This document shows, one piece after another, positions 359 through 28,715 of a DNA stretch of 64,000 nt. The stretch comes from Escherichia coli (GTDB lineage: Bacteria > Pseudomonadota > Gammaproteobacteria > Enterobacterales > Enterobacteriaceae), in assembly GCF_016903815.1 (NCBI RefSeq), contig NZ_CP069973.1, one strand, 5' to 3'. Position 1 is the first letter of the stretch, and every line of letters starts with the position of its first letter. A program made the translations under genes and the position numbers. Below the pieces are notes generated by a model. The model searched no databases. It worked only from the letters and a program-made list of their open reading frames with translations, and was not told the origin of the DNA.

Positions 359-1944
359 TCCTTCACCCCACCAAATGCTTCTTCCAGCAACTGGCGCTGC
401 GCATCCGCCTCATCGCTCGCCCCCAGTTCACGCATCAGCGCATCCAGTTCAGACAGCGCCTGTACCAGTTCACCCATCGCTTCTGCCGCTAATACATCCG
501 GCTCCGGCAGGTTGTCGGCATCAATACTGTCTTTATCTTTCAGCCAGGAGATATCCAGCGAATCGGATTTCGCGGTGCGGATCCACTCGCGGCTGAACTT
601 GCGCCAGCGGCTGGTAGCAAGATGCTGGTCGGTGTTTTTGTTCTCTTCGCTGTCGGCAATTTCCGTCTCTTCGGCGTTAAAACTCCATTCACCTTCAGTG
701 CGCGGGCTTAAGCCGTGCGGGTCTTCGCCAAACACGCGCTCAAACGGTTGCAAATGCTCGTCGGTAAACGGCGTGCGTTTACCAAAGCTCGGCATATTGG
801 TCCGCAGGTCGTACACCCACACGTCATCGGTGCAGTTCTTATCCTGATTCGGGTTCGCCACCGTCCCTTTGGTAAAGAACAGCACGTTGGTCTTCACGCC
901 CTGCGCGTAAAAAATACCGGTCGGCAGACGCAGAATAGTGTGCAGATGACACTTATCCATCAGGTCACGACGGATGTCCGTACCTTTGCCGCCTTCAAAC
1001 AGCACGTTATCCGGCACCACCACCGCCGCACGACCGCCGGGGTGCAGCGTTTCGATAATATGCTGCATAAAGCACAACTGTTTGTTGCTGGTCGGGTGAA
1101 CAAAGGTGCGGGTAATGTTGGTGCCTGCGGCGCTGCCAAACGGCGGGTTAGTGGCGACAATATGCGCCTTCGGCAGGTTTTCGCCGTCGCTGCCCAGGGT
1201 GTTGCCCAGACGGATTGCGCCGCCGTGGTCGAGGTTGCCTTCAATATCGTGCAGCAGGCAGTTCATCAGCGCCAGACGACGGGTGCCGGGCACCAGTTCG
1301 AGGCCGATAAACGCGCGGTGGATCTGGAAATCCTGCGTGTCGCCATCAAGGTCGTCCAGATCGTTAGTCTGCGACTTAACGTAGCGGTCGGCTTCAATCA
1401 AAAAGCCCGCCGTACCGGCTGCCGGATCCTGTACCACTTCACGTGGCTGCGGTTTCAGCAGATGAATAATGGTTTTAATCAGCGGACGCGGGGTGAAGTA
1501 CTGGCCCGCGCCAGACTTGGTTTCATTGGCGTTCTTCTGCAGCAGCCCTTCGTACATATCGCCGAAGTCATCGCGCGACTTACCGTGCGCACCGTTGTAC
1601 CAGTCCAGTGAATCCATATTGCTGACCAGTGCGGTTATTTGTTTCGGCTCGGTGATGGTGGTACTAACATTATGAAAAACTGCCTGTACCAGCTTTTTGT
1701 CATCTTCGCCTAAATGCACGAGCATTTTTCGGTAGAACTGCAACTGCTCCTGGCCGATGCGGGATTTCAGGTCATCCCAGCGGTAACCTTCCGGCAGGTA
1801 TTCCGCTTCCTGCCCGGTCTCTTTACACATTTTCAAAAACAGCAGCGAGGCGAGTTCATTGACGTAGTTTTGATAGGAAACGCCGCCATCGCGCAGGTTG
1901 TCGCACAGCTTCCACAGCTTCGCGACCAGATCGTTATTGTTCAT
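355..1944 (-). CDS. hsdM: Type I RM DNA methyltransferase subunit HsdM (529 aa)
   Basis: ORF track 529 aa; N-terminus MNNNDLVAKLWKLCDNLRDGG and NPPFG methyltransferase motif; length as recalled for E. coli HsdM. Confidence 0.93.
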   Translation of the reverse strand: MNNNDLVAKLWKLCDNLRDGGVSYQNYVNELASLLFLKMCKETGQEAEYLPEGYRWDDLKSRIGQEQLQFYRKMLVHLGEDDKKLVQAVFHNVSTTITEPKQITALVSNMDSLDWYNGAHGKSRDDFGDMYEGLLQKNANETKSGAGQYFTPRPLIKTIIHLLKPQPREVVQDPAAGTAGFLIEADRYVKSQTNDLDDLDGDTQDFQIHRAFIGLELVPGTRRLALMNCLLHDIEGNLDHGGAIRLGNTLGSDGENLPKAHIVATNPPFGSAAGTNITRTFVHPTSNKQLCFMQHIIETLHPGGRAAVVVPDNVLFEGGKGTDIRRDLMDKCHLHTILRLPTGIFYAQGVKTNVLFFTKGTVANPNQDKNCTDDVWVYDLRTNMPSFGKRTPFTDEHLQPFERVFGEDPHGLSPRTEGEWSFNAEETEIADSEENKNTDQHLATSRWRKFSREWIRTAKSDSLDISWLKDKDSIDADNLPEPDVLAAEAMGELVQALSELDALMRELGASDEADAQRQLLEEAFGGVKE

Positions 1945-2145
1945 TGTGAGTTCCGTAAATTAAACAACGGCCCGCATTGTTTGGGGCCGCAGAAGAAGAA
2001 ATTGCCGAGGGTAATATACACAAAATCATTCAGGTTGCATCAAGGCGGCAAGTGAGTGAATCCCCGGGAGCGTACAGAAGTACGTGACCGGGGTGAACGA
2101 GCGCAGCCAACGCAGAGGCAGCCTGAAGGATGAAGTGTATACGTG

Positions 2146-5100
2146 TCAGGCCAGCTCGTCCCAGATATAATCGCTGAATTTATCAAGCAGGTTGTCGAGA
2201 TTATCGTCAAAGGTTCTTTGTAGCATCGCCTTACCGCCGCGGCGGTGGAAGTTGCCGGTTTTGAAGACATCGTCGTCGAGCACCACTTTCTCTTTCAGCG
2301 CCTGCGCTAAACGATCGAGCCAGCTTAATTGCTCGCTGCTCCAGTCGTTTTCACCCTTAATGCGCGTCAGCGCGTGATCGACACGTTCCTCAAACGGTTT
2401 CAGCGCATCGCCCACCGCAGCGCGGCGAATATGACCAATCAGCCGGGCGGCGATATCTTCATTGCGCGTCTCTTTCCATGCTTTGCGCAGGGAAGATTCC
2501 TCAAAATGCTGGCGGTCAAACCACTCCTGGAGCTCGACCAGCCCTTTACGGGTGAGATCGCGCGGGCGATTGATCACCGCCTGCAATGCCGGCTGCGCGT
2601 TCGGGGAACGTTGCACCAGCGAGTCAAAGGCTTCGAGGAAATCCTGCGGCGTGTCGTAATCACCGTACAGCGATTTTACACTCACCACTTCATCGTCGAT
2701 ATCGAGGAAGATCGGCGCATCATTCAGGTTGTTGATGTCCGTTTTCAGCTTTTCCAGACGGGCGATAAAGCCAGGCAGTTTGTTAAAGACTTCGGCGCTC
2801 CAGTGCGGCCCTTTTTCCCGCAGGCGCGAGGCGAAGCCGTTAAAGTTCACGCCCGCCGCGTCCTGGCATAGCTCATCCAGACGACGCACCTGTTTATCTA
2901 TCGTTTCGCTGCGGTCACGGTTAAACGTGGCCAGGCCGATGATGCGCTGGAGCTTCGCCACCAATTGTTCATGGCTGTGCTCGGCAAAGCTACGGCCATC
3001 CGCTTCGGTGATTTTATAGGTTTCTGAATCGGTAATTTCATTGACCAGCGTTTGCAGTTCCACCTTCGGACGCACCACCACCGGACGCATGGTGTCGACG
3101 CTCTCCAGCGTGCTGTAGATATCGACACAGTCGAAAATCTTAAAGCTGGTTTTATTCACGTCCGGGCATAAGCGCGTGGCGCGGCCTTTCATCTGCTCGT
3201 ACAGAATACGGCTGCGTACTTTACGCAGGAACACGATATTACAGATCGACGGAATATCGACGCCGGTTGTCAGCAGGTCGACGGTTACCACGATATTGGG
3301 CAGCCGCTCTTTATTGAAGCGGGTGATCATGGTCTGCACTTTGCGCGCGTCTTTATCGGCATCACCGGTGATCTTGATGATCGCGTCGTGCTCCAGTTGC
3401 GGATACTTTTTCTTGAACGCGGTACGCAACTCTTCCACCACCATATCGGCATGGGCATTGGTAACGCAGAAGACCAGCGTTTTTTGCGACCCGGTCGGGT
3501 CAAGGTAGTTGGTGAGCTCGTTACAGACGGCGCGGTTAAACGCCGGGATCACCAGGCCACGGTTAAAGTCGGCGACCTCAAAATCCTGATCGTCTTCCAG
3601 GGTATCGTTGATCACTTCTCCCTGCGGGCTGATGCGCTCTACCTGTTCGCCCTTGGAGAGATAAACCCCCTCCTGGGCGTTGCGGGTGATGATCTGAATC
3701 GGCGGATCCTGGTCGATCAGAAAACCGTCGATAACCGCGGTACGGTAGGTATAACGGTAAACCGGCTCGCCGAAAATCTGCACCGTATGCAGCGCCGGGG
3801 TGGCGGTGAGGGCGATTTTTACCGCATCGAAGTGATCGAGAATGCGACGGTAGGCAGAAACGTAATCCAGCTGGCTGCGGAACTGCAGCTCGCCTTCGGT
3901 CTGCTCTTTATCGAGAATATAGCCGCGATGCGCTTCATCGACGACGATACAGTCGTAACGGGCCACCGGCATCGGTTCATCTGATTGTAGGGTGCGTTTC
4001 ACCAGCGACTGTACGGTGGCAACGTGAATTTTGGTGCTGTCTTCGGGGAATTTATCCGTCAGCCCTTTAATGTCGAAAATGCTGTTGAAGGTGTCGCCGT
4101 TAATACGCGTATCTTCAAACGCCCCCAGTGCCTGCTCGCCAAGAGAACGGCGATCGACAAGGAAGAGAATGCGTTTAAAACGCTGGGACTGGATCAGGCG
4201 GAACATCATGGCAATTGCGGTGCGGGTTTTACCGGTACCGGTCGCCATCGCCAGCAGGATCTCTTGTTGACCCTTGACGATTGCCTTTTCCACCGCGCGG
4301 ACGGCATCTTCCTGGTAATAACGCAGGCCCAGCTCGCTCATGCCCGGGTTATCGGCAAACCACTGATTCTGTTTTTGCGGTTCGCTGCCGAGCATTTCCA
4401 GCAGCTCTTCCGGGCGATGCCACTCGGGTAAGGCTTTCGACATATTGCGGGTATCACGCACGTCGCGATACCAGATGCCACTTTTAGTCTTCATTGCTGC
4501 GCGATATTCGCGCCCGTTGGTGGAGTAGCAGAAGGGGATTTTAAACCGTTGTTGGCCGCTGGTGTCCTGCCAGCTAGTTTCATACTCCGGCACAGCTTCA
4601 TGCACTTCATCCGGTGAGTAATGCTCAAGCAAGGTTTCCCGCAGGAAGCCATTATCGAAGCATTTGCTGTAGCGATACGACTCATTGAGCTTGCCGGGAA
4701 CGTCGATATTTTTACGTTTCGCCTCTACCACCGCGATGGGCTTGAGGCCGACAAACAGCACATAATCCGCAAAGCCCTGATTACCCGTTTCATCTTTCCC
4801 GGTCGGCCATTCGGCAATGGCTTTATTGACGCCGGGTTCCGGGCGTGCGCCTTTGGAGAAGCGCAGGGTTTTGCTATCGGCCTGCCAGCCTGCTTTACGC
4901 AGTTGCGCGTCAATCAGGAAGCGACTCTCTTCTTCGCTAAGGTTGAGTGTGCGCTTGATGGCCTGATCGGTAATTTCTTTGTGGTAAGCCTTACGTTCCT
5001 GTTCGGTCTGTTTGGCCAGCTCCGCGTTCTTCTCGGCGAGCTGTGCTTCCAGCGCCGCAAGGCGAGCCTGGGTTTGCGCTTCTGTTTCCTGCTGTTTGCC

Positions 5101-15104: not shown

Positions 15105-15794
15105 CTTTACTTACTCCATGCTAAGGAAATAAAACTCCAACATTGTTGTCGGGAGTGAAACCTTATGAAAAAGCAGTCATTACTGAAAAGTAGTCAGCGA
15201 ATAGCAGAATGGCTGCAGATGTATCATAAATTCGTGCACCGGGTAATACTTTGCTGCTTTTAATCGGTTTTTAATGCATTTTTTGATTGTATATCTTAAA
15301 GTTATGTAATGCATGACGTTACAAGGAACACCCTCTGATGAGTTTAGTTACCGCTGATAAGATCTCTTATTCTGTTGATGATTTATTAAAAATAAAATCA
15401 TTAATTTGGCTGCGGCCATTTTAAATTGTCAATACAGATAAAAACTAAGTGTTGACGCAGAATGGTGGTATCCATTAAATTTATTTAGTGCTGATTTAAT
15501 ACATTTGCTGAACGTATAATTCATGCTGATATTAAAAGAAAACCGTCATTCACTAAATAACTTGTTCGGCAAGGAAATCAGAGAGTAACGGATGATTCGT
15601 TACAACGGGGAAAGGCAGTAAATATTCACGTGGTGAATTTGTTATCAACTTGAAAACTCATTTTACTGGGTTCCTTCTGATCATGTGAGTGAACGCAGTG
15701 ATTAATGATTAACGTTAAGTGCTAACCAGAGCGCTTTTTATGAAGTTAAATTAATAATATCCATTATTTATGAATGAGGAAGCCTGTTTATTAT

Positions 15795-23650: not shown

Positions 23651-24190
23651 TTACCCTCTGAATCCTGGTGGAATTTGGCTGTCAGGTTCACTGACCGTAT
23701 TCACATCTCGTTTCGGCAGTCCGCCGTTGCTGGCACGACCGATTTGCAGGCTGCGCGCCAGTTTTTGTTGCCACTGCACATGGTGAAAGACTTTGCCTTC
23801 CGCCTGCCAGTAGGCAATGAATGACGCCAGTTCTTCGGCGGTCACCGACTCTCTTAGTGCCACGCCCCATAGCGCCGCCAGGCGGATAAAGTCGGCATCG
23901 GGTTGCCAGTCTGGGTACATGGCAAATTTCCCCATGGGTACGGCAACGGGAGCGGTTTGCGGTTCCTGATAGAGTTGATCGTCCAGAGCGACATCGCTTC
24001 CCGGACGCGCCAGCTTTTCTTCCAGCGCCAGCAGTTCAGCCAGGCGTGCAGGAGTGATGGCATAAAACGCCGGGGCATTGTTAGCAAATACGGCAACCAC
24101 ACCGCCTTCAGCTTTTGCCAGAACGGTTTGGTGATCGTGTACCAGGGCGTCAATACCAACGACGTCCGGGGTCAAAACTCTGGAAGACAT
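23651..24190 (-). CDS. dnaT: Primosomal protein DnaT (about 179 aa)
   Basis: ORF track 183 aa; start set to the internal Met ([14 protein letters not shown]) to match the recalled length. Confidence 0.88.
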
Positions 24191-24297
24191 ACTGTTTCTC
24201 AAATATGGAACGATGAACGAGAAGGGAGATAACTTTTATAGTAACACACGGAGGAGAGGAGGCTGTCTCTCATCCGCGTGCTTTAAGTGAGGCAATT

Positions 24298-25532
<1,235 letters not shown>

Positions 25533-26151
25533 AACTCGCCCTTTGTCATAGACGTGCTGCGTATTGTTCAGATAATGAGAATCCATTTGTATCATGAAGC
25601 ACGGTTGTTTTGCGGTAGGTTAAGATCAAAATTGCGCTGATTAATCCTGGTTATCGGGAGATGCTCGGTGATAAAAAGCGAATTATCTCTCGCCGTAAAC
25701 AAACTATCGCATGAATATTATCACTATAATGAATTTGTTATTTGGCCTTTACGAGTCAGGATAATAGATAGCTGGGCGCGTTTTTTTATGTTAACAAGTT
25801 AAAACCATCAGATTTTATTGAATAAATATTGATTGTGTGATTCCCGCACTCTGCGGGAAGGGATATCATTTAATTATAAATTAAATGAATGTGATTTCTG
25901 TTTTTCATTAAGTATTCCTAACAACTTAATGTAGATATTTTAAATGTCTCCAGGCTATTTCACCAGGTTATCATTTGATGCTAACCTTCTGACACATGCA
26001 GTGGAGTTGTTGTGCAGCAGGAGTATGCTGATATGAAAGTGAATGCTAAGGATAATTTATTCGCTTAATCTATTAATTTGCTGGAAACATTTAAGGAATG
26101 AATATCCTGAATAAACCATCATGATTTTTAGACAGTGGATGTGGAGGAAAT

Positions 26152-26877
26152 ATGTTGCCAGGATGCTGCAAAAATGGAATTGTTATCAGTAAAATACCTG
26201 TTATGCAAGCAGGGTTAAAAGAGGTCATGAGGACTCACTTCCCTGAATATGAAATAATATCCAGCGCCTCTGCGGAGGACCTTACCTTATTACAATTACG
26301 TCGTTCCGGATTAGTCATTGCTGATTTAGCCGGTGAAAGTGAAGATCCACGTTCTGTTTGTGAACATTATTATTCTTTAATCTCACAATATCGGGAAATT
26401 CACTGGGTTTTCATGGTGTCACGCTCCTGGTATTCCCAGGCAGTAGAATTGCTCATGTGCCCTACGGCGACGTTATTGTCTGATGTTGAACCCATTGAGA
26501 ATCTGGTCAAGACCGTACGTTCCGGCAATACGCACGCAGAGCGTATCAGCGCCATGCTGACCTCTCCGGCAATGACTGAAACTCATGATTTTAGCTATCG
26601 CTCCGTCATTCTCACTCTTTCAGAGCGCAAGGTACTGCGGCTATTAGGTAAAGGATGGGGCATCAACCAGATAGCTTCGTTGCTTAAGAAAAGTAATAAA
26701 ACTATCAGCGCCCAAAAAAACAGTGCGATGCGTCGACTGGCAATTCACAGCAACGCTGAAATGTATGCATGGATAAATAGCGCGCAGGGTGCAAGAGAAC
26801 TTAACTTGCCTTCTGTTTATGGAGATGCCGCAGAATGGAACACAGCCGAATTAAGAAGAGAAATGTCGCACTCATAG
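26152..26877 (+). CDS. yjjQ: LuxR/FixJ-type transcriptional regulator YjjQ (241 aa)
   Basis: ORF track 241 aa with C-terminal LuxR-type HTH; follows a long AT-rich region; overlaps bglJ. Confidence 0.82.
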
Positions 26878-27512
26878 AAAAATGCGTCATGAGCAGTATC
26901 GGTATTGAGAGTTTATTCAGAAAGTTTGCGGGTAACCCTTATAAGCTCCATACCTATACCAGTCAGGAGTCATTTCAGGATGCCATGTCGCGGATCTCAT
27001 TTGCGGCGGTCATTTTTTCTTTTTCTGCCATGAGAAGTGAGCGCAGAGAGGGATTATCTTGCCTGACTGAACTGGCGATTAAGTTTCCGCGTACCCGGCG
27101 TTTAGTTATTGCGGATGATGATATTGAAGCTCGGCTGATTGGTTCATTGTCGCCATCACCGCTGGACGGTGTATTAAGTAAAGCGTCAACGCTGGAGATT
27201 TTTCATCAGGAACTCTTTTTGTCATTAAATGGTGTACGTCAGGCGACCGACCGACTGAACAATCAGTGGTACATTAACCAAAGCCGGACGTTAAGCCCGA
27301 CGGAGAGAGAAATATTGCGCTTTATGTCGCGTGGCTACTCAATGACACAAATTGCCGAGCAGCTTAAACGCAATATCAAAACGATCCGTGCACATAAATT
27401 TAATGTGATGTCGAAACTGGGCGTCAGTTCTGATGCAGGGTTGTTGGAGGCCGCAGATATTCTGTTATGTATGCGGCATTGCGAAGCAAGTAATGTGTTG
27501 CATCCCTATTAA
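26835..27512 (+). CDS. bglJ: LuxR-type regulator BglJ (225 aa)
   Basis: ORF track 225 aa with C-terminal LuxR HTH ([24 protein letters not shown]); co-operonic with yjjQ. Confidence 0.82.
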
Positions 27513-27549
27513 TCCGCATTATGCCGGGTTTACTTCCCCGGCAGTGCTT

Positions 27550-28338
27550 TCATTTCAGCGTACAATCGCCACATTGCTGCACATCCGGTAAGCGATAACG
27601 CTGGCAGCAAGTGCGGCGCACCAGCAGGCCGTCGCGCAGTACCACGGTACGCCAGAGTGGATTATCTTCACCGGTAGAAAGCGTTTTCTCAAAAAAGAGG
27701 GCATGGCGCAGCGATTCAACCGTCGCCTCGCCGAGCAGTTGCTTCATCTCAGTGAGATACCAGTTGATCAAATAACCGGTATTACTCCAGATAAGTTTGC
27801 CGTTGATCTCTCCGGTCGCTTCTAGTGCCTGCACAACCGGAACCAGCGCCTGGCTGATTAACGTTTCCATTCGCTGCTGCGGCGAATGTGGTGTTGCGTT
27901 TTTATCTTCACACACATCGACCCAGAAACAGGCGGCACGGCCGGTTTCGTGAAACTCAGCATGGAAATGTTCCGGCGACACATCTAATGCCTTTTCCTGC
28001 GTCAGTAGCGCCAGCATTAATGGTGGCACCATCAGGCCGATATACCATTGTGCCCATAGCGAGATCAGCGGTTTGTTCTCGCGGATCATCGTTGGTTGGT
28101 TGCGATAGATATGATCGGAATAGACCGCGAGTAGAGAACTTAGCGCATTCGGTGATGACCATTGCGCCAGCGTCATGGCGTTAAGCGGAGCGGGTTCATC
28201 CAGGCGGATAAACTCCAGCAAATGTTCACGATGTTCGGCGATCGTCGCACGTACGGCTTGTGCAAGCCCAGCATCCTGTGGCTGGAGATGCGTTCGCCAG
28301 ATAACATCTTCATAGAGCGGTGCGGAACGATAGGCCAT
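27550..28338 (-). CDS. fhuF: Ferric-siderophore reductase FhuF (262 aa)
   Basis: ORF track 262 aa with C-terminal 2Fe-2S cysteine cluster (CCQRYRLPDVQQCGDC). Confidence 0.88.
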   Translation of the reverse strand: MAYRSAPLYEDVIWRTHLQPQDAGLAQAVRATIAEHREHLLEFIRLDEPAPLNAMTLAQWSSPNALSSLLAVYSDHIYRNQPTMIRENKPLISLWAQWYIGLMVPPLMLALLTQEKALDVSPEHFHAEFHETGRAACFWVDVCEDKNATPHSPQQRMETLISQALVPVVQALEATGEINGKLIWSNTGYLINWYLTEMKQLLGEATVESLRHALFFEKTLSTGEDNPLWRTVVLRDGLLVRRTCCQRYRLPDVQQCGDCTLK

Positions 28339-28354
28339 AATCGGGATAGTAATC

Positions 28355-28465
28355 TAAATGATAATGATTGCTAATCCTAGCGATAGGTTTATCCGATAGC
28401 AAGGGATTTCTCTGGCTTGCAAATGATAAAAATTATCATATGATATTGGTTATCATTATCAATGA
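28355..28465. promoter_or_regulatory. Fur boxes in the fhuF/yjjZ divergent promoter
   Basis: aatgataatgattgctaat and aatgataaaaattatcatatgatattggttatcattatc match the Fur consensus GATAATGATAATCATTATC. Confidence 0.7.
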
Positions 28466-28478
28466 AAGAGATGAAACC

Positions 28479-28715
28479 ATGTTGCAACGTACGCTGGGCA
28501 GTGGCTGGGGAGTGTTGCTGCCAGGATTGCTGATTGCAGGGCTGATGTATGCGGATTTATCACCGGATCAGTGGCGGATTGTCATTCTGATGGGATTAGT
28601 ATTGACGTCGGTGATGCTGTATCACAAACAGTTACGGCATTACGTTTTGCTACCATCGTGCCTGGCGCTTATTGCTGCCATCATGCTGATGATAATGAAT
28701 TTGAATCAGGGATGA
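28479..28715 (+). CDS. yjjZ: YjjZ small membrane protein (78 aa)
   Basis: ORF track 115 aa; start set to the internal Met (MLQRTLGSGWGVLL) to give the recalled 78 aa. Confidence 0.65.
   Translation: MLQRTLGSGWGVLLPGLLIAGLMYADLSPDQWRIVILMGLVLTSVMLYHKQLRHYVLLPSCLALIAAIMLMIMNLNQG

Follow-up and report, generated by a model that had tools for sequence, protein, structure and literature searches.

The bgl operon is silenced by H-NS and is activated by IS insertion, by LeuO and by BglJ-RcsB. Its upstream silencer resembles the region described here in being AT-rich, silenced by H-NS, relieved of silencing by LeuO and targeted by IS insertions that change expression (PMC9678765; PMC2646131; PMC5493358). 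The present spacer differs from the bgl silencer in two respects: it is divergent and silences two outward-facing promoters, and the IS insertions found in it were scored for yjjP, on which they had only a 2-fold effect. A second likeness is to the leuO and cas (Pcas) promoters, which are AT-rich, repressed by H-NS and bound by LeuO, and whose 7-N5-7 LeuO core has a candidate counterpart in the spacer at 26087-26105. This counterpart differs from the leuO and cas cores in carrying two mismatches and in being conserved in Escherichia only, while the deeply conserved TTAG-N5-CTAA element of the spacer is a different sequence altogether.

The closest described system is the yjjP-yjjQ/bglJ region of K-12 itself. 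The abstract of Stratmann 2008 reportedly places H-NS centrally in the spacer, in a position distal to either promoter, and describes LeuO sites as central and as distal to the promoters of yjjQ, one of these sites overlapping that of yjjP. Later papers, with reference to Stratmann 2008, attribute the repression of yjjQ-bglJ to H-NS and its activation to LeuO, and report that H-NS repression dominates at this operon under laboratory conditions (PMC5025477; PMC3950696). By genomic SELEX the exact spacer was found to be bound by both RpoD holoenzyme and H-NS, and the best-match promoters were given as ATGAAA-17-TTTAAT for yjjP and CTGATA-17-GATAAT for yjjQ-bglJ (PMC3946193). ChIP-seq of MarA in ETEC H10407 produced a strong peak in yjjP<>yjjQ, with the marbox gcatcaaatgataac (PMC5684230).

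The DNA analysed here is a stretch of 64,000 nucleotides of Escherichia coli (the window), and the locus within it occupies its usual chromosomal setting. Many complete E. coli chromosomes show 100% identity to bases 24500-27700, and this segment finds a match in 5,424 of 5,426 complete genomes; an uninterrupted copy of the region is missing in about 25 of these 5,424. RefSeq annotation of the identical chromosomes lists opgB, yjjA, dnaC, dnaT, yjjB and yjjP on the minus strand and, past the spacer, yjjQ and bglJ on the plus strand, followed by fhuF, yjjZ and three tRNA-Leu genes. The gene order in K-12 MG1655 is identical, and the LuxR-type operon that the sequence-only reading placed downstream had been correctly named yjjQ-bglJ. 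Identical flanking genes and a near-equal spacer length (619 bp here, 618 bp at 4602859-4603476 in K-12) confirm that the position is orthologous to the K-12 region. The spacer is about 97-99% identical to that of K-12 MG1655, with 100% identity over 25861-26122; this strain shows about 20 substitutions and a 1-bp indel relative to K-12, concentrated in 25660-25860. The regulation described above was shown in K-12 throughout, and the present lineage differs from K-12 mainly in the central 200 bp. One of the changes in this strain creates a perfect hairpin at 25841-25859, with a free energy of -12 to -14 kcal/mol and a z-score of -2.0 to -2.9. A repeat search of the region returned only short two-copy matches. 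The features of the locus are collected in Table 1.

Table 1. Position and character of the features in and around the yjjP/yjjQ spacer (coordinates of the window).
Feature	Position	Strand	Description
yjjP CDS	24762..25532	-	256 aa; ThrE-family exporter, putative succinate exporter subunit; transcribed away from the spacer
Complete non-coding divergent yjjP/yjjQ intergenic region	25533..26151		619 bp, 35.1% G+C; H-NS-silenced, LeuO-responsive regulatory region (RefSeq annotation, composition, literature)
yjjP-proximal conserved block	25583..25647	-	85-100% identity in Escherichia (20-bp bins), 41-64% across other genera
Hypervariable, most AT-rich centre	~25650..25900		Unalignable even between Escherichia species; holds nearly all differences from K-12
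Perfect hairpin with 8-bp stem	25841..25859		TTCCCGCA-CTC-TGCGGGAA; strain-specific, imperfect in K-12; no T-run after it
Predicted sigma-70 promoter, toward yjjP	25880..25908	-	ATGAAA-17-TTTAAT; hexamers in PMC3946193, placed by reading the sequence
Two tandem imperfect palindromes TTAG-N5-CTAA, 22 bp apart	25909..25943		Site 1 25909-25921 TAAGTATTCCTAA; site 2 25931-25943 GTAGATATTTTAA
30-codon ATG ORF	25944..26036	+	Largely open in seven Escherichia lineages; probably not a gene
MarA marbox	25967..25981	-	GCATCAAATGATAAC; ChIP-seq-reported in ETEC H10407 (PMC5684230); exact sequence match here
Predicted sigma-70 promoter, yjjQ-bglJ	26028..26056	+	CTGATA-17-GATAAT; implied start near 26063; consensus scan and hexamers in PMC3946193
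Candidate LeuO core site	26087..26105		ACATTTAAGGAATGAATAT; 2 mismatches in 14 positions to ATATTCA-N5-TGAATAT; conserved in Escherichia only
yjjQ Shine-Dalgarno sequence	26143..26148	+	GGAGGA; GGAG core invariant in 23 aligned genera and lineages
yjjQ CDS	26152..26877	+	241 aa; LuxR/FixJ-type regulator; first gene of the yjjQ-bglJ operon; 44.9% G+C
bglJ CDS	26835..27512	+	225 aa; 43-nt overlap with the end of yjjQ; 45.3% G+C

A non-coding stretch of about 550 bp had been noted before yjjQ-bglJ, beginning at 25596. The AT-rich gap is real, but its left edge was misplaced. The longest ORF that can be read for yjjP (277 aa) begins at the 25595/25596 boundary, and the yjjP start in RefSeq and in K-12 is at 25532 (256 aa). 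We rejected the 277-aa form, the 21-codon extension of which contains in-frame stops or has no ATG in sister Escherichia lineages, and in these lineages the yjjP sequence is conserved from MQTEQQRA onward. With the extension broken in sister lineages, the real non-coding gap is therefore 25533-26151, a total of 619 bp. The abstract of Stratmann, Madhusudan and Schnetz, in J Bacteriol 190:926 of 2008, reportedly gives a '555-bp intergenic region', a length that would agree with the 556-bp interval starting at 25596. The description of the stretch as upstream of yjjQ-bglJ is likewise correct in that it precedes yjjQ, but incomplete, as the spacer is divergent and serves yjjP(-yjjB) as well. For annotation, the spacer is to be given as 619 bp with yjjP starting from 25532, and labelled as the shared regulatory region of yjjP-yjjB and yjjQ-bglJ, carrying a MarA site.

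Base composition was assessed for the interval 25596-26151. These 556 bp have a G+C content of 34.5% as against 51.9% for the whole window, and equally low or lower values occur in only 0.9% of all windows of 556 bp, with the minimum of 25-29% G+C reached at 25800-25950. TpA steps are present at 0.087 per bp, compared to a window mean of 0.042 (top 1.3%), and 15 hexamers resemble a -10 element where the mean is 2.8 (top 0.5%); the density of A-tracts is unexceptional (top 18%). Given the excess of TpA steps and -10-like hexamers that accompanies it, the strong AT-richness first noticed from the letters is therefore a real property of the stretch and not a chance fluctuation. Low G+C, dense TpA steps and numerous -10-like hexamers constitute the composition that H-NS prefers and that is typical of H-NS targets. 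The 10-bp high-affinity H-NS motif TCGATAAATT is not enriched in the spacer, where it has only two matches, each with two mismatches (25812-25821 and 26069-26078). The interpretation of the stretch as silenced by H-NS is supported both by its H-NS-like composition and by the literature, namely PMC5025477, PMC3950696 and the SELEX data of PMC3946193.

Both best-match promoters of the SELEX study can be located in the spacer; promoter and terminator scans of the sequence gave counts that were not above those of shuffles. The marbox 15-mer has a single exact match in the window (25967-25981, minus strand), where none is expected by chance, and the block that surrounds it is 96% conserved in Escherichia. 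The marbox reported by ChIP-seq is thus present exactly in the spacer as a predicted site of the MarA/SoxS/Rob type. For LeuO, we took the 7-N5-7 arrangement set out in PMC6698644 and rebuilt its core sequence, ATATTCA-N5-TGAATAT, from the K-12 regulatory regions of cas and leuO. A match to this reconstructed consensus as good as that of the candidate site upstream of yjjQ arises in 1.6% of shuffles of the region.

Our reading of the stretch, to which we assign a probability of about 0.9, is that it is the regulatory spacer shared by yjjP and yjjQ-bglJ, bound by H-NS, relieved by LeuO and bound by MarA, and that it acts as protein-bound DNA with no encoded small RNA or peptide. In the mechanism that we propose, the very AT-rich and TpA-dense DNA would be bound by the nucleoid protein H-NS, and H-NS at the centre of the spacer would keep both flanking promoters almost silent under laboratory conditions. 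Binding of LeuO, a LysR-type protein, to the spacer would relieve the silencing of yjjQ-bglJ, MarA would bind the marbox about 180 bp upstream of yjjQ, and the function of the spacer would be exerted through these bound proteins and not through an encoded small RNA or peptide. The region is real, ordinary and already described, and its identification amounts to the recognition of a published regulatory region; it provides a textbook-style example of xenogeneic silencing, with H-NS acting on an AT-rich divergent promoter region and LeuO relieving it. What is new to this report is the hypervariable centre, with IS elements landing in it or close by, the conserved tandem TTAG-N5-CTAA element and the candidate LeuO core site.

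Comparison of 80 loci encoding YjjQ relatives, taken from species-representative genomes, reveals how this architecture is maintained. In Escherichia, most Citrobacter, Salmonella diarizonae, Enterobacter, Lelliottia, Leclercia, Trabulsiella, Phytobacter and others, yjjP and yjjQ remain divergent on either side of an AT-rich spacer that measures 390-710 bp and has a G+C content of about 32-44%, where the loci have 47-55%. An insert of about 2 kb separates yjjP from yjjQ in Klebsiella, Raoultella, Kluyvera and some Citrobacter; we take the proteins of the K. pneumoniae insert to be a PobA-like flavin monooxygenase and an AraC-type regulator. An apparent spacer of 50 bp in one E. albertii strain resulted from a deletion within yjjP; the spacer of this strain is intact. 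Four conservation zones can be distinguished, these being the yjjP-proximal block, the centre, the yjjQ-proximal 250 bp, which are well conserved within Escherichia, and the yjjQ ribosome-binding site. Bins adjacent to the yjjP-proximal block fall to 21-29% identity across other genera, and this block probably holds the core promoter and 5' leader of yjjP. At the centre the AT-richness is kept and the sequence is not, a pattern that fits recognition of composition and shape and not a coded product. We infer that the hypervariable centre is the main zone of H-NS nucleation.

Composition-driven silencing alone leaves one deeply conserved part of the spacer unexplained, the tandem element at 25909-25943. 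Besides the ribosome-binding site, the segment 25906-25946 that contains it is the sole block conserved across genera upstream of yjjQ; many genera of Enterobacteriaceae carry the element at about 200-280 bp upstream of yjjQ, between flanks that cannot be aligned. We searched for the motif in the 400 nt upstream of yjjQ at 78 loci, with 300 shuffles for comparison. The loci are related, such that the counts overstate independence, and with this proviso TTAG-N5-CTAA occurs exactly in 18/78 loci where 0.99 are expected (maximum of 5 in the 300 shuffles), and with at most one mismatch in 55/78 loci where 20.5 +/- 3.8 are expected. The hits are clustered, 68 of 77 lying at -280 to -161 from the yjjQ ATG.

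This enrichment and clustering amid otherwise unalignable sequence raise the possibility, which we regard as doubtful, that, over and above generic silencing by H-NS, the key control is exerted by a specific operator; the tandem pair would then be the target of a dedicated regulator, dimeric or tetrameric, that sets yjjQ-bglJ expression across the Enterobacteriaceae. Candidates for this role are proteins of the LysR type, such as LeuO, or of the MarR type, such as SlyA, and partners of RcsB. The spacing of the two copies corresponds to about two helical turns and their T-N11-A geometry is typical of LysR-type sites. In addition, TATTCCTA in site 1 (25913-25920) equals the RcsB half-site worded as wwTTCykA (PMC3950696), which is also the right half of the RcsAB box. 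Phylogenetic non-independence of the loci weighs against this reading, and so does the failure of the candidates to fit. The element does not match the reconstructed LeuO core TTCA-N5-TGAA. A SlyA/RovA operator was rejected, the MarR-type consensus TTAGCAAGCTAA (TTA-N6-TAA, 12 bp) having a spacer one base shorter than the TTA-N7-TAA found here, and yjjQ is not among the SlyA-induced transcripts (PMC5797941). The RcsAB box, likewise rejected, fits in its right half, but the left half is 2 bp too close. Autoregulation by YjjQ through the palindrome was also rejected: the motif, with at most one mismatch allowed, is missing from the K-12 upstream regions of flhD, gfcA, ompC, yfiR, ybhL and ymiA, the six promoters that Wiebe et al. 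2015 reportedly named as repressed by YjjQ. Finally, the tandem element may be no more than one of the LeuO footprints, or the core promoter, mapped in 2008.

A narrower form of this proposal, in which the tandem pair, kept from Escherichia to Klebsiella, Enterobacter and Raoultella, would be the operator of a regulator new to the yjjQ-bglJ operon, appears unlikely. Such a regulator could be an RcsB-containing heteromer, implying BglJ-RcsB feedback, an option suggested by the perfect RcsB half-site in site 1; it could also be a counter-silencer of the LysR or MarR type. If it existed, this regulator would supply the missing physiological signal that switches on the 'cryptic' yjjQ-bglJ-LeuO circuit, and the tandem palindrome upstream of yjjQ may in any case be of help to work on the BglJ-RcsB/LeuO/YjjQ network.

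With respect to coding content, the ORF list bears out the earlier observation that only short ORFs are present in the region, and the small RNAs or leader peptides that it had left open find no support in Rfam, terminator, folding or ORF selection analyses. It is very improbable that yjjQ-bglJ or yjjP is controlled by an unannotated product of the spacer, be it a small RNA, a small peptide or a leader peptide. The spacer is long enough to suggest one, with 5' leaders that could reach 100-250 nt, and promoter-like hexamers are abundant in it. Against this, an Rfam scan of 24000-28500 on both strands gave zero matches at E<=1, and there is no credible terminator, the single terminator-like site at 25694-25677 being at the level of shuffles with a folding z-score of -0.16. 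The putative yjjQ and yjjP leaders are no more stable than their shuffles (z -0.35 and +0.84, respectively), no conserved block with structure, of the kind that would mark a small regulatory RNA, was found in the spacer, and the RefSeq annotation of K-12 places no feature within it.

Among the six ORFs of at least 30 codons that lie in or overlap the spacer, five are interrupted by stops in other Escherichia species. The exception, the 30-codon ATG ORF at 25944-26036, speaks for a peptide in that it stays largely open in seven Escherichia lineages; however, it has a pN/pS of 0.5-1.1 and a pN of 0.18-0.21, where the opening 20 codons of yjjQ have a pN of 0, no Shine-Dalgarno sequence precedes it, and it is missing outside Escherichia in the cross-genus alignment. 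These values are indicative of an almost neutrally evolving sequence that is probably not a gene, nor a leader peptide or small protein; its persistence is explained by its conserved 5' half, which coincides with the marbox block. Our conclusion is that neither an RNA gene nor a peptide gene finds support in the spacer.

The reading of the spacer as protein-bound regulatory DNA can also be set beside the IS insertions that it receives. In mouse gut-colonisation experiments, IS insertions in the spacer were recovered repeatedly and were adaptive (PMC4674774; PMC5094792), and with one insertion the expression of yjjP in aerobic culture rose about 2-fold (PMC5094792). The supplement of PMC5094792 lists the insertions from gut evolution at -111 (IS1), -185 (IS2) and -256 (IS5) relative to the start of yjjP; in the window these correspond to approximately 25643, just left of the hypervariable centre, 25717 and 25788. 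At such distances, from -111 to -256, the insertions may work by disconnecting the promoter of yjjP from a centre bound by H-NS. That the AT-rich spacer is a neutral remnant of the horizontal acquisition of yjjQ-bglJ, with no regulatory role of its own, is hardly credible: the two genes are indeed AT-rich themselves beside yjjP (51.9% G+C) and fhuF (53.5%), and the spacer centre evolves fast, but such a remnant is contradicted by the published reporter-fusion data behind H-NS repression and LeuO activation, by sub-blocks conserved across genera, by the MarA ChIP-seq site, by the recurrence of adaptive IS insertions that affect expression and by the retention of an AT-rich spacer across the Enterobacteriaceae.

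Insertions of the same kind are present in natural isolates. The complete genome of isolate TUM13064 carries an IS1 with a target duplication at 25697-25704, and natural and experimental insertions thus coincide in the yjjP-proximal part of the spacer, which may be of use for work on the adaptation of E. coli to the gut. Elsewhere among the complete genomes, yjjQ is interrupted by an IS1 in one strain, and in another a deletion associated with IS1 has removed the spacer together with yjjQ and the 5' part of bglJ.

Divergence between the window and K-12 is unevenly distributed across the yjjP-yjjQ spacer, the 200 bp at its centre (25660-25860) holding approximately 20 differences and the following 260 bp (25861-26122) none. 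This sharp contrast suggests that the core presumed to be bound by H-NS is either under relaxed constraint or subject to accelerated change or recombination. A perfect G+C-rich hairpin, TTCCCGCA-CTC-TGCGGGAA, is located mid-way in this AT-rich centre, and its K-12 counterpart is imperfect; there is no T-run 3' of the stem and the hairpin has no obvious function.

Upstream of yjjQ, at a distance of 160-280 bp, a pair of TTAG-N5-CTAA-like palindromes spaced 22 bp apart is kept in many genera of the Enterobacteriaceae, while the spacer flanking the pair is not alignable across genera. The exact motif is present in 18 of the 78 loci, against an expectation of around one. In Klebsiella, Raoultella, Kluyvera and some Citrobacter, yjjP and yjjQ are separated by an insert of approximately 2 kb; the conserved element upstream of yjjQ is still present in these loci, downstream of the insert. 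By reading of its products, the K. pneumoniae insert would encode a putative monooxygenase of the PobA type together with a putative AraC-type regulator.

Features of the yjjP-yjjQ spacer, related loci and a second divergent region
Feature	Sequence	Coordinates	Remark
IS1, IS2 and IS5 insertions selected in the mouse gut	window	25643-25788	
IS1 of isolate TUM13064	window	25697-25704	NZ_CP135653.1
G+C-rich hairpin	window	25841-25859	~-12 kcal/mol
Palindrome pair	window	25909-25943	
yjjP-yjjQ insert	K. pneumoniae locus (L070)	1153-3235	further loci with ~2.6-kb spacing
yjjP remnant	E. albertii NBRC 107761 locus (L007)	2683-2870	
Second divergent region	window	15105-15794	minimum 31% G+C
LeuO-like palindrome	window	15622-15640	1 mismatch

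The insertions selected during experimental evolution in the mouse gut lie in a zone of approximately 150 bp in the spacer (PMC5094792), and the IS1 of the natural isolate TUM13064 falls within this same zone. A clinical isolate (NZ_CP180393.1) carries IS1 within the yjjQ coding sequence, and in a cat isolate (NZ_CP180597.1) an IS1-associated deletion removes the entire spacer along with yjjQ and the 5' portion of bglJ; thus, loss of the operon happens in nature. In E. albertii NBRC 107761 it is yjjP that is affected, being detectable only as residues 204-256 and approximately 12 N-terminal codons, which points to a pseudogene with an internal deletion of around 570 bp; yjjQ and the intergenic region are both intact.

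A second divergent intergenic region of the window, bordered on one side by a gene for a TRAP-transporter substrate-binding protein and on the other by one for a Na+/H+ antiporter, is AT-richer than the yjjP-yjjQ spacer and may be a further H-NS/LeuO target. It contains ATATTCACGTGGTGAATTT, which of all sites in the window comes closest to the LeuO core palindrome reconstructed from the K-12 cas and leuO regulatory regions.
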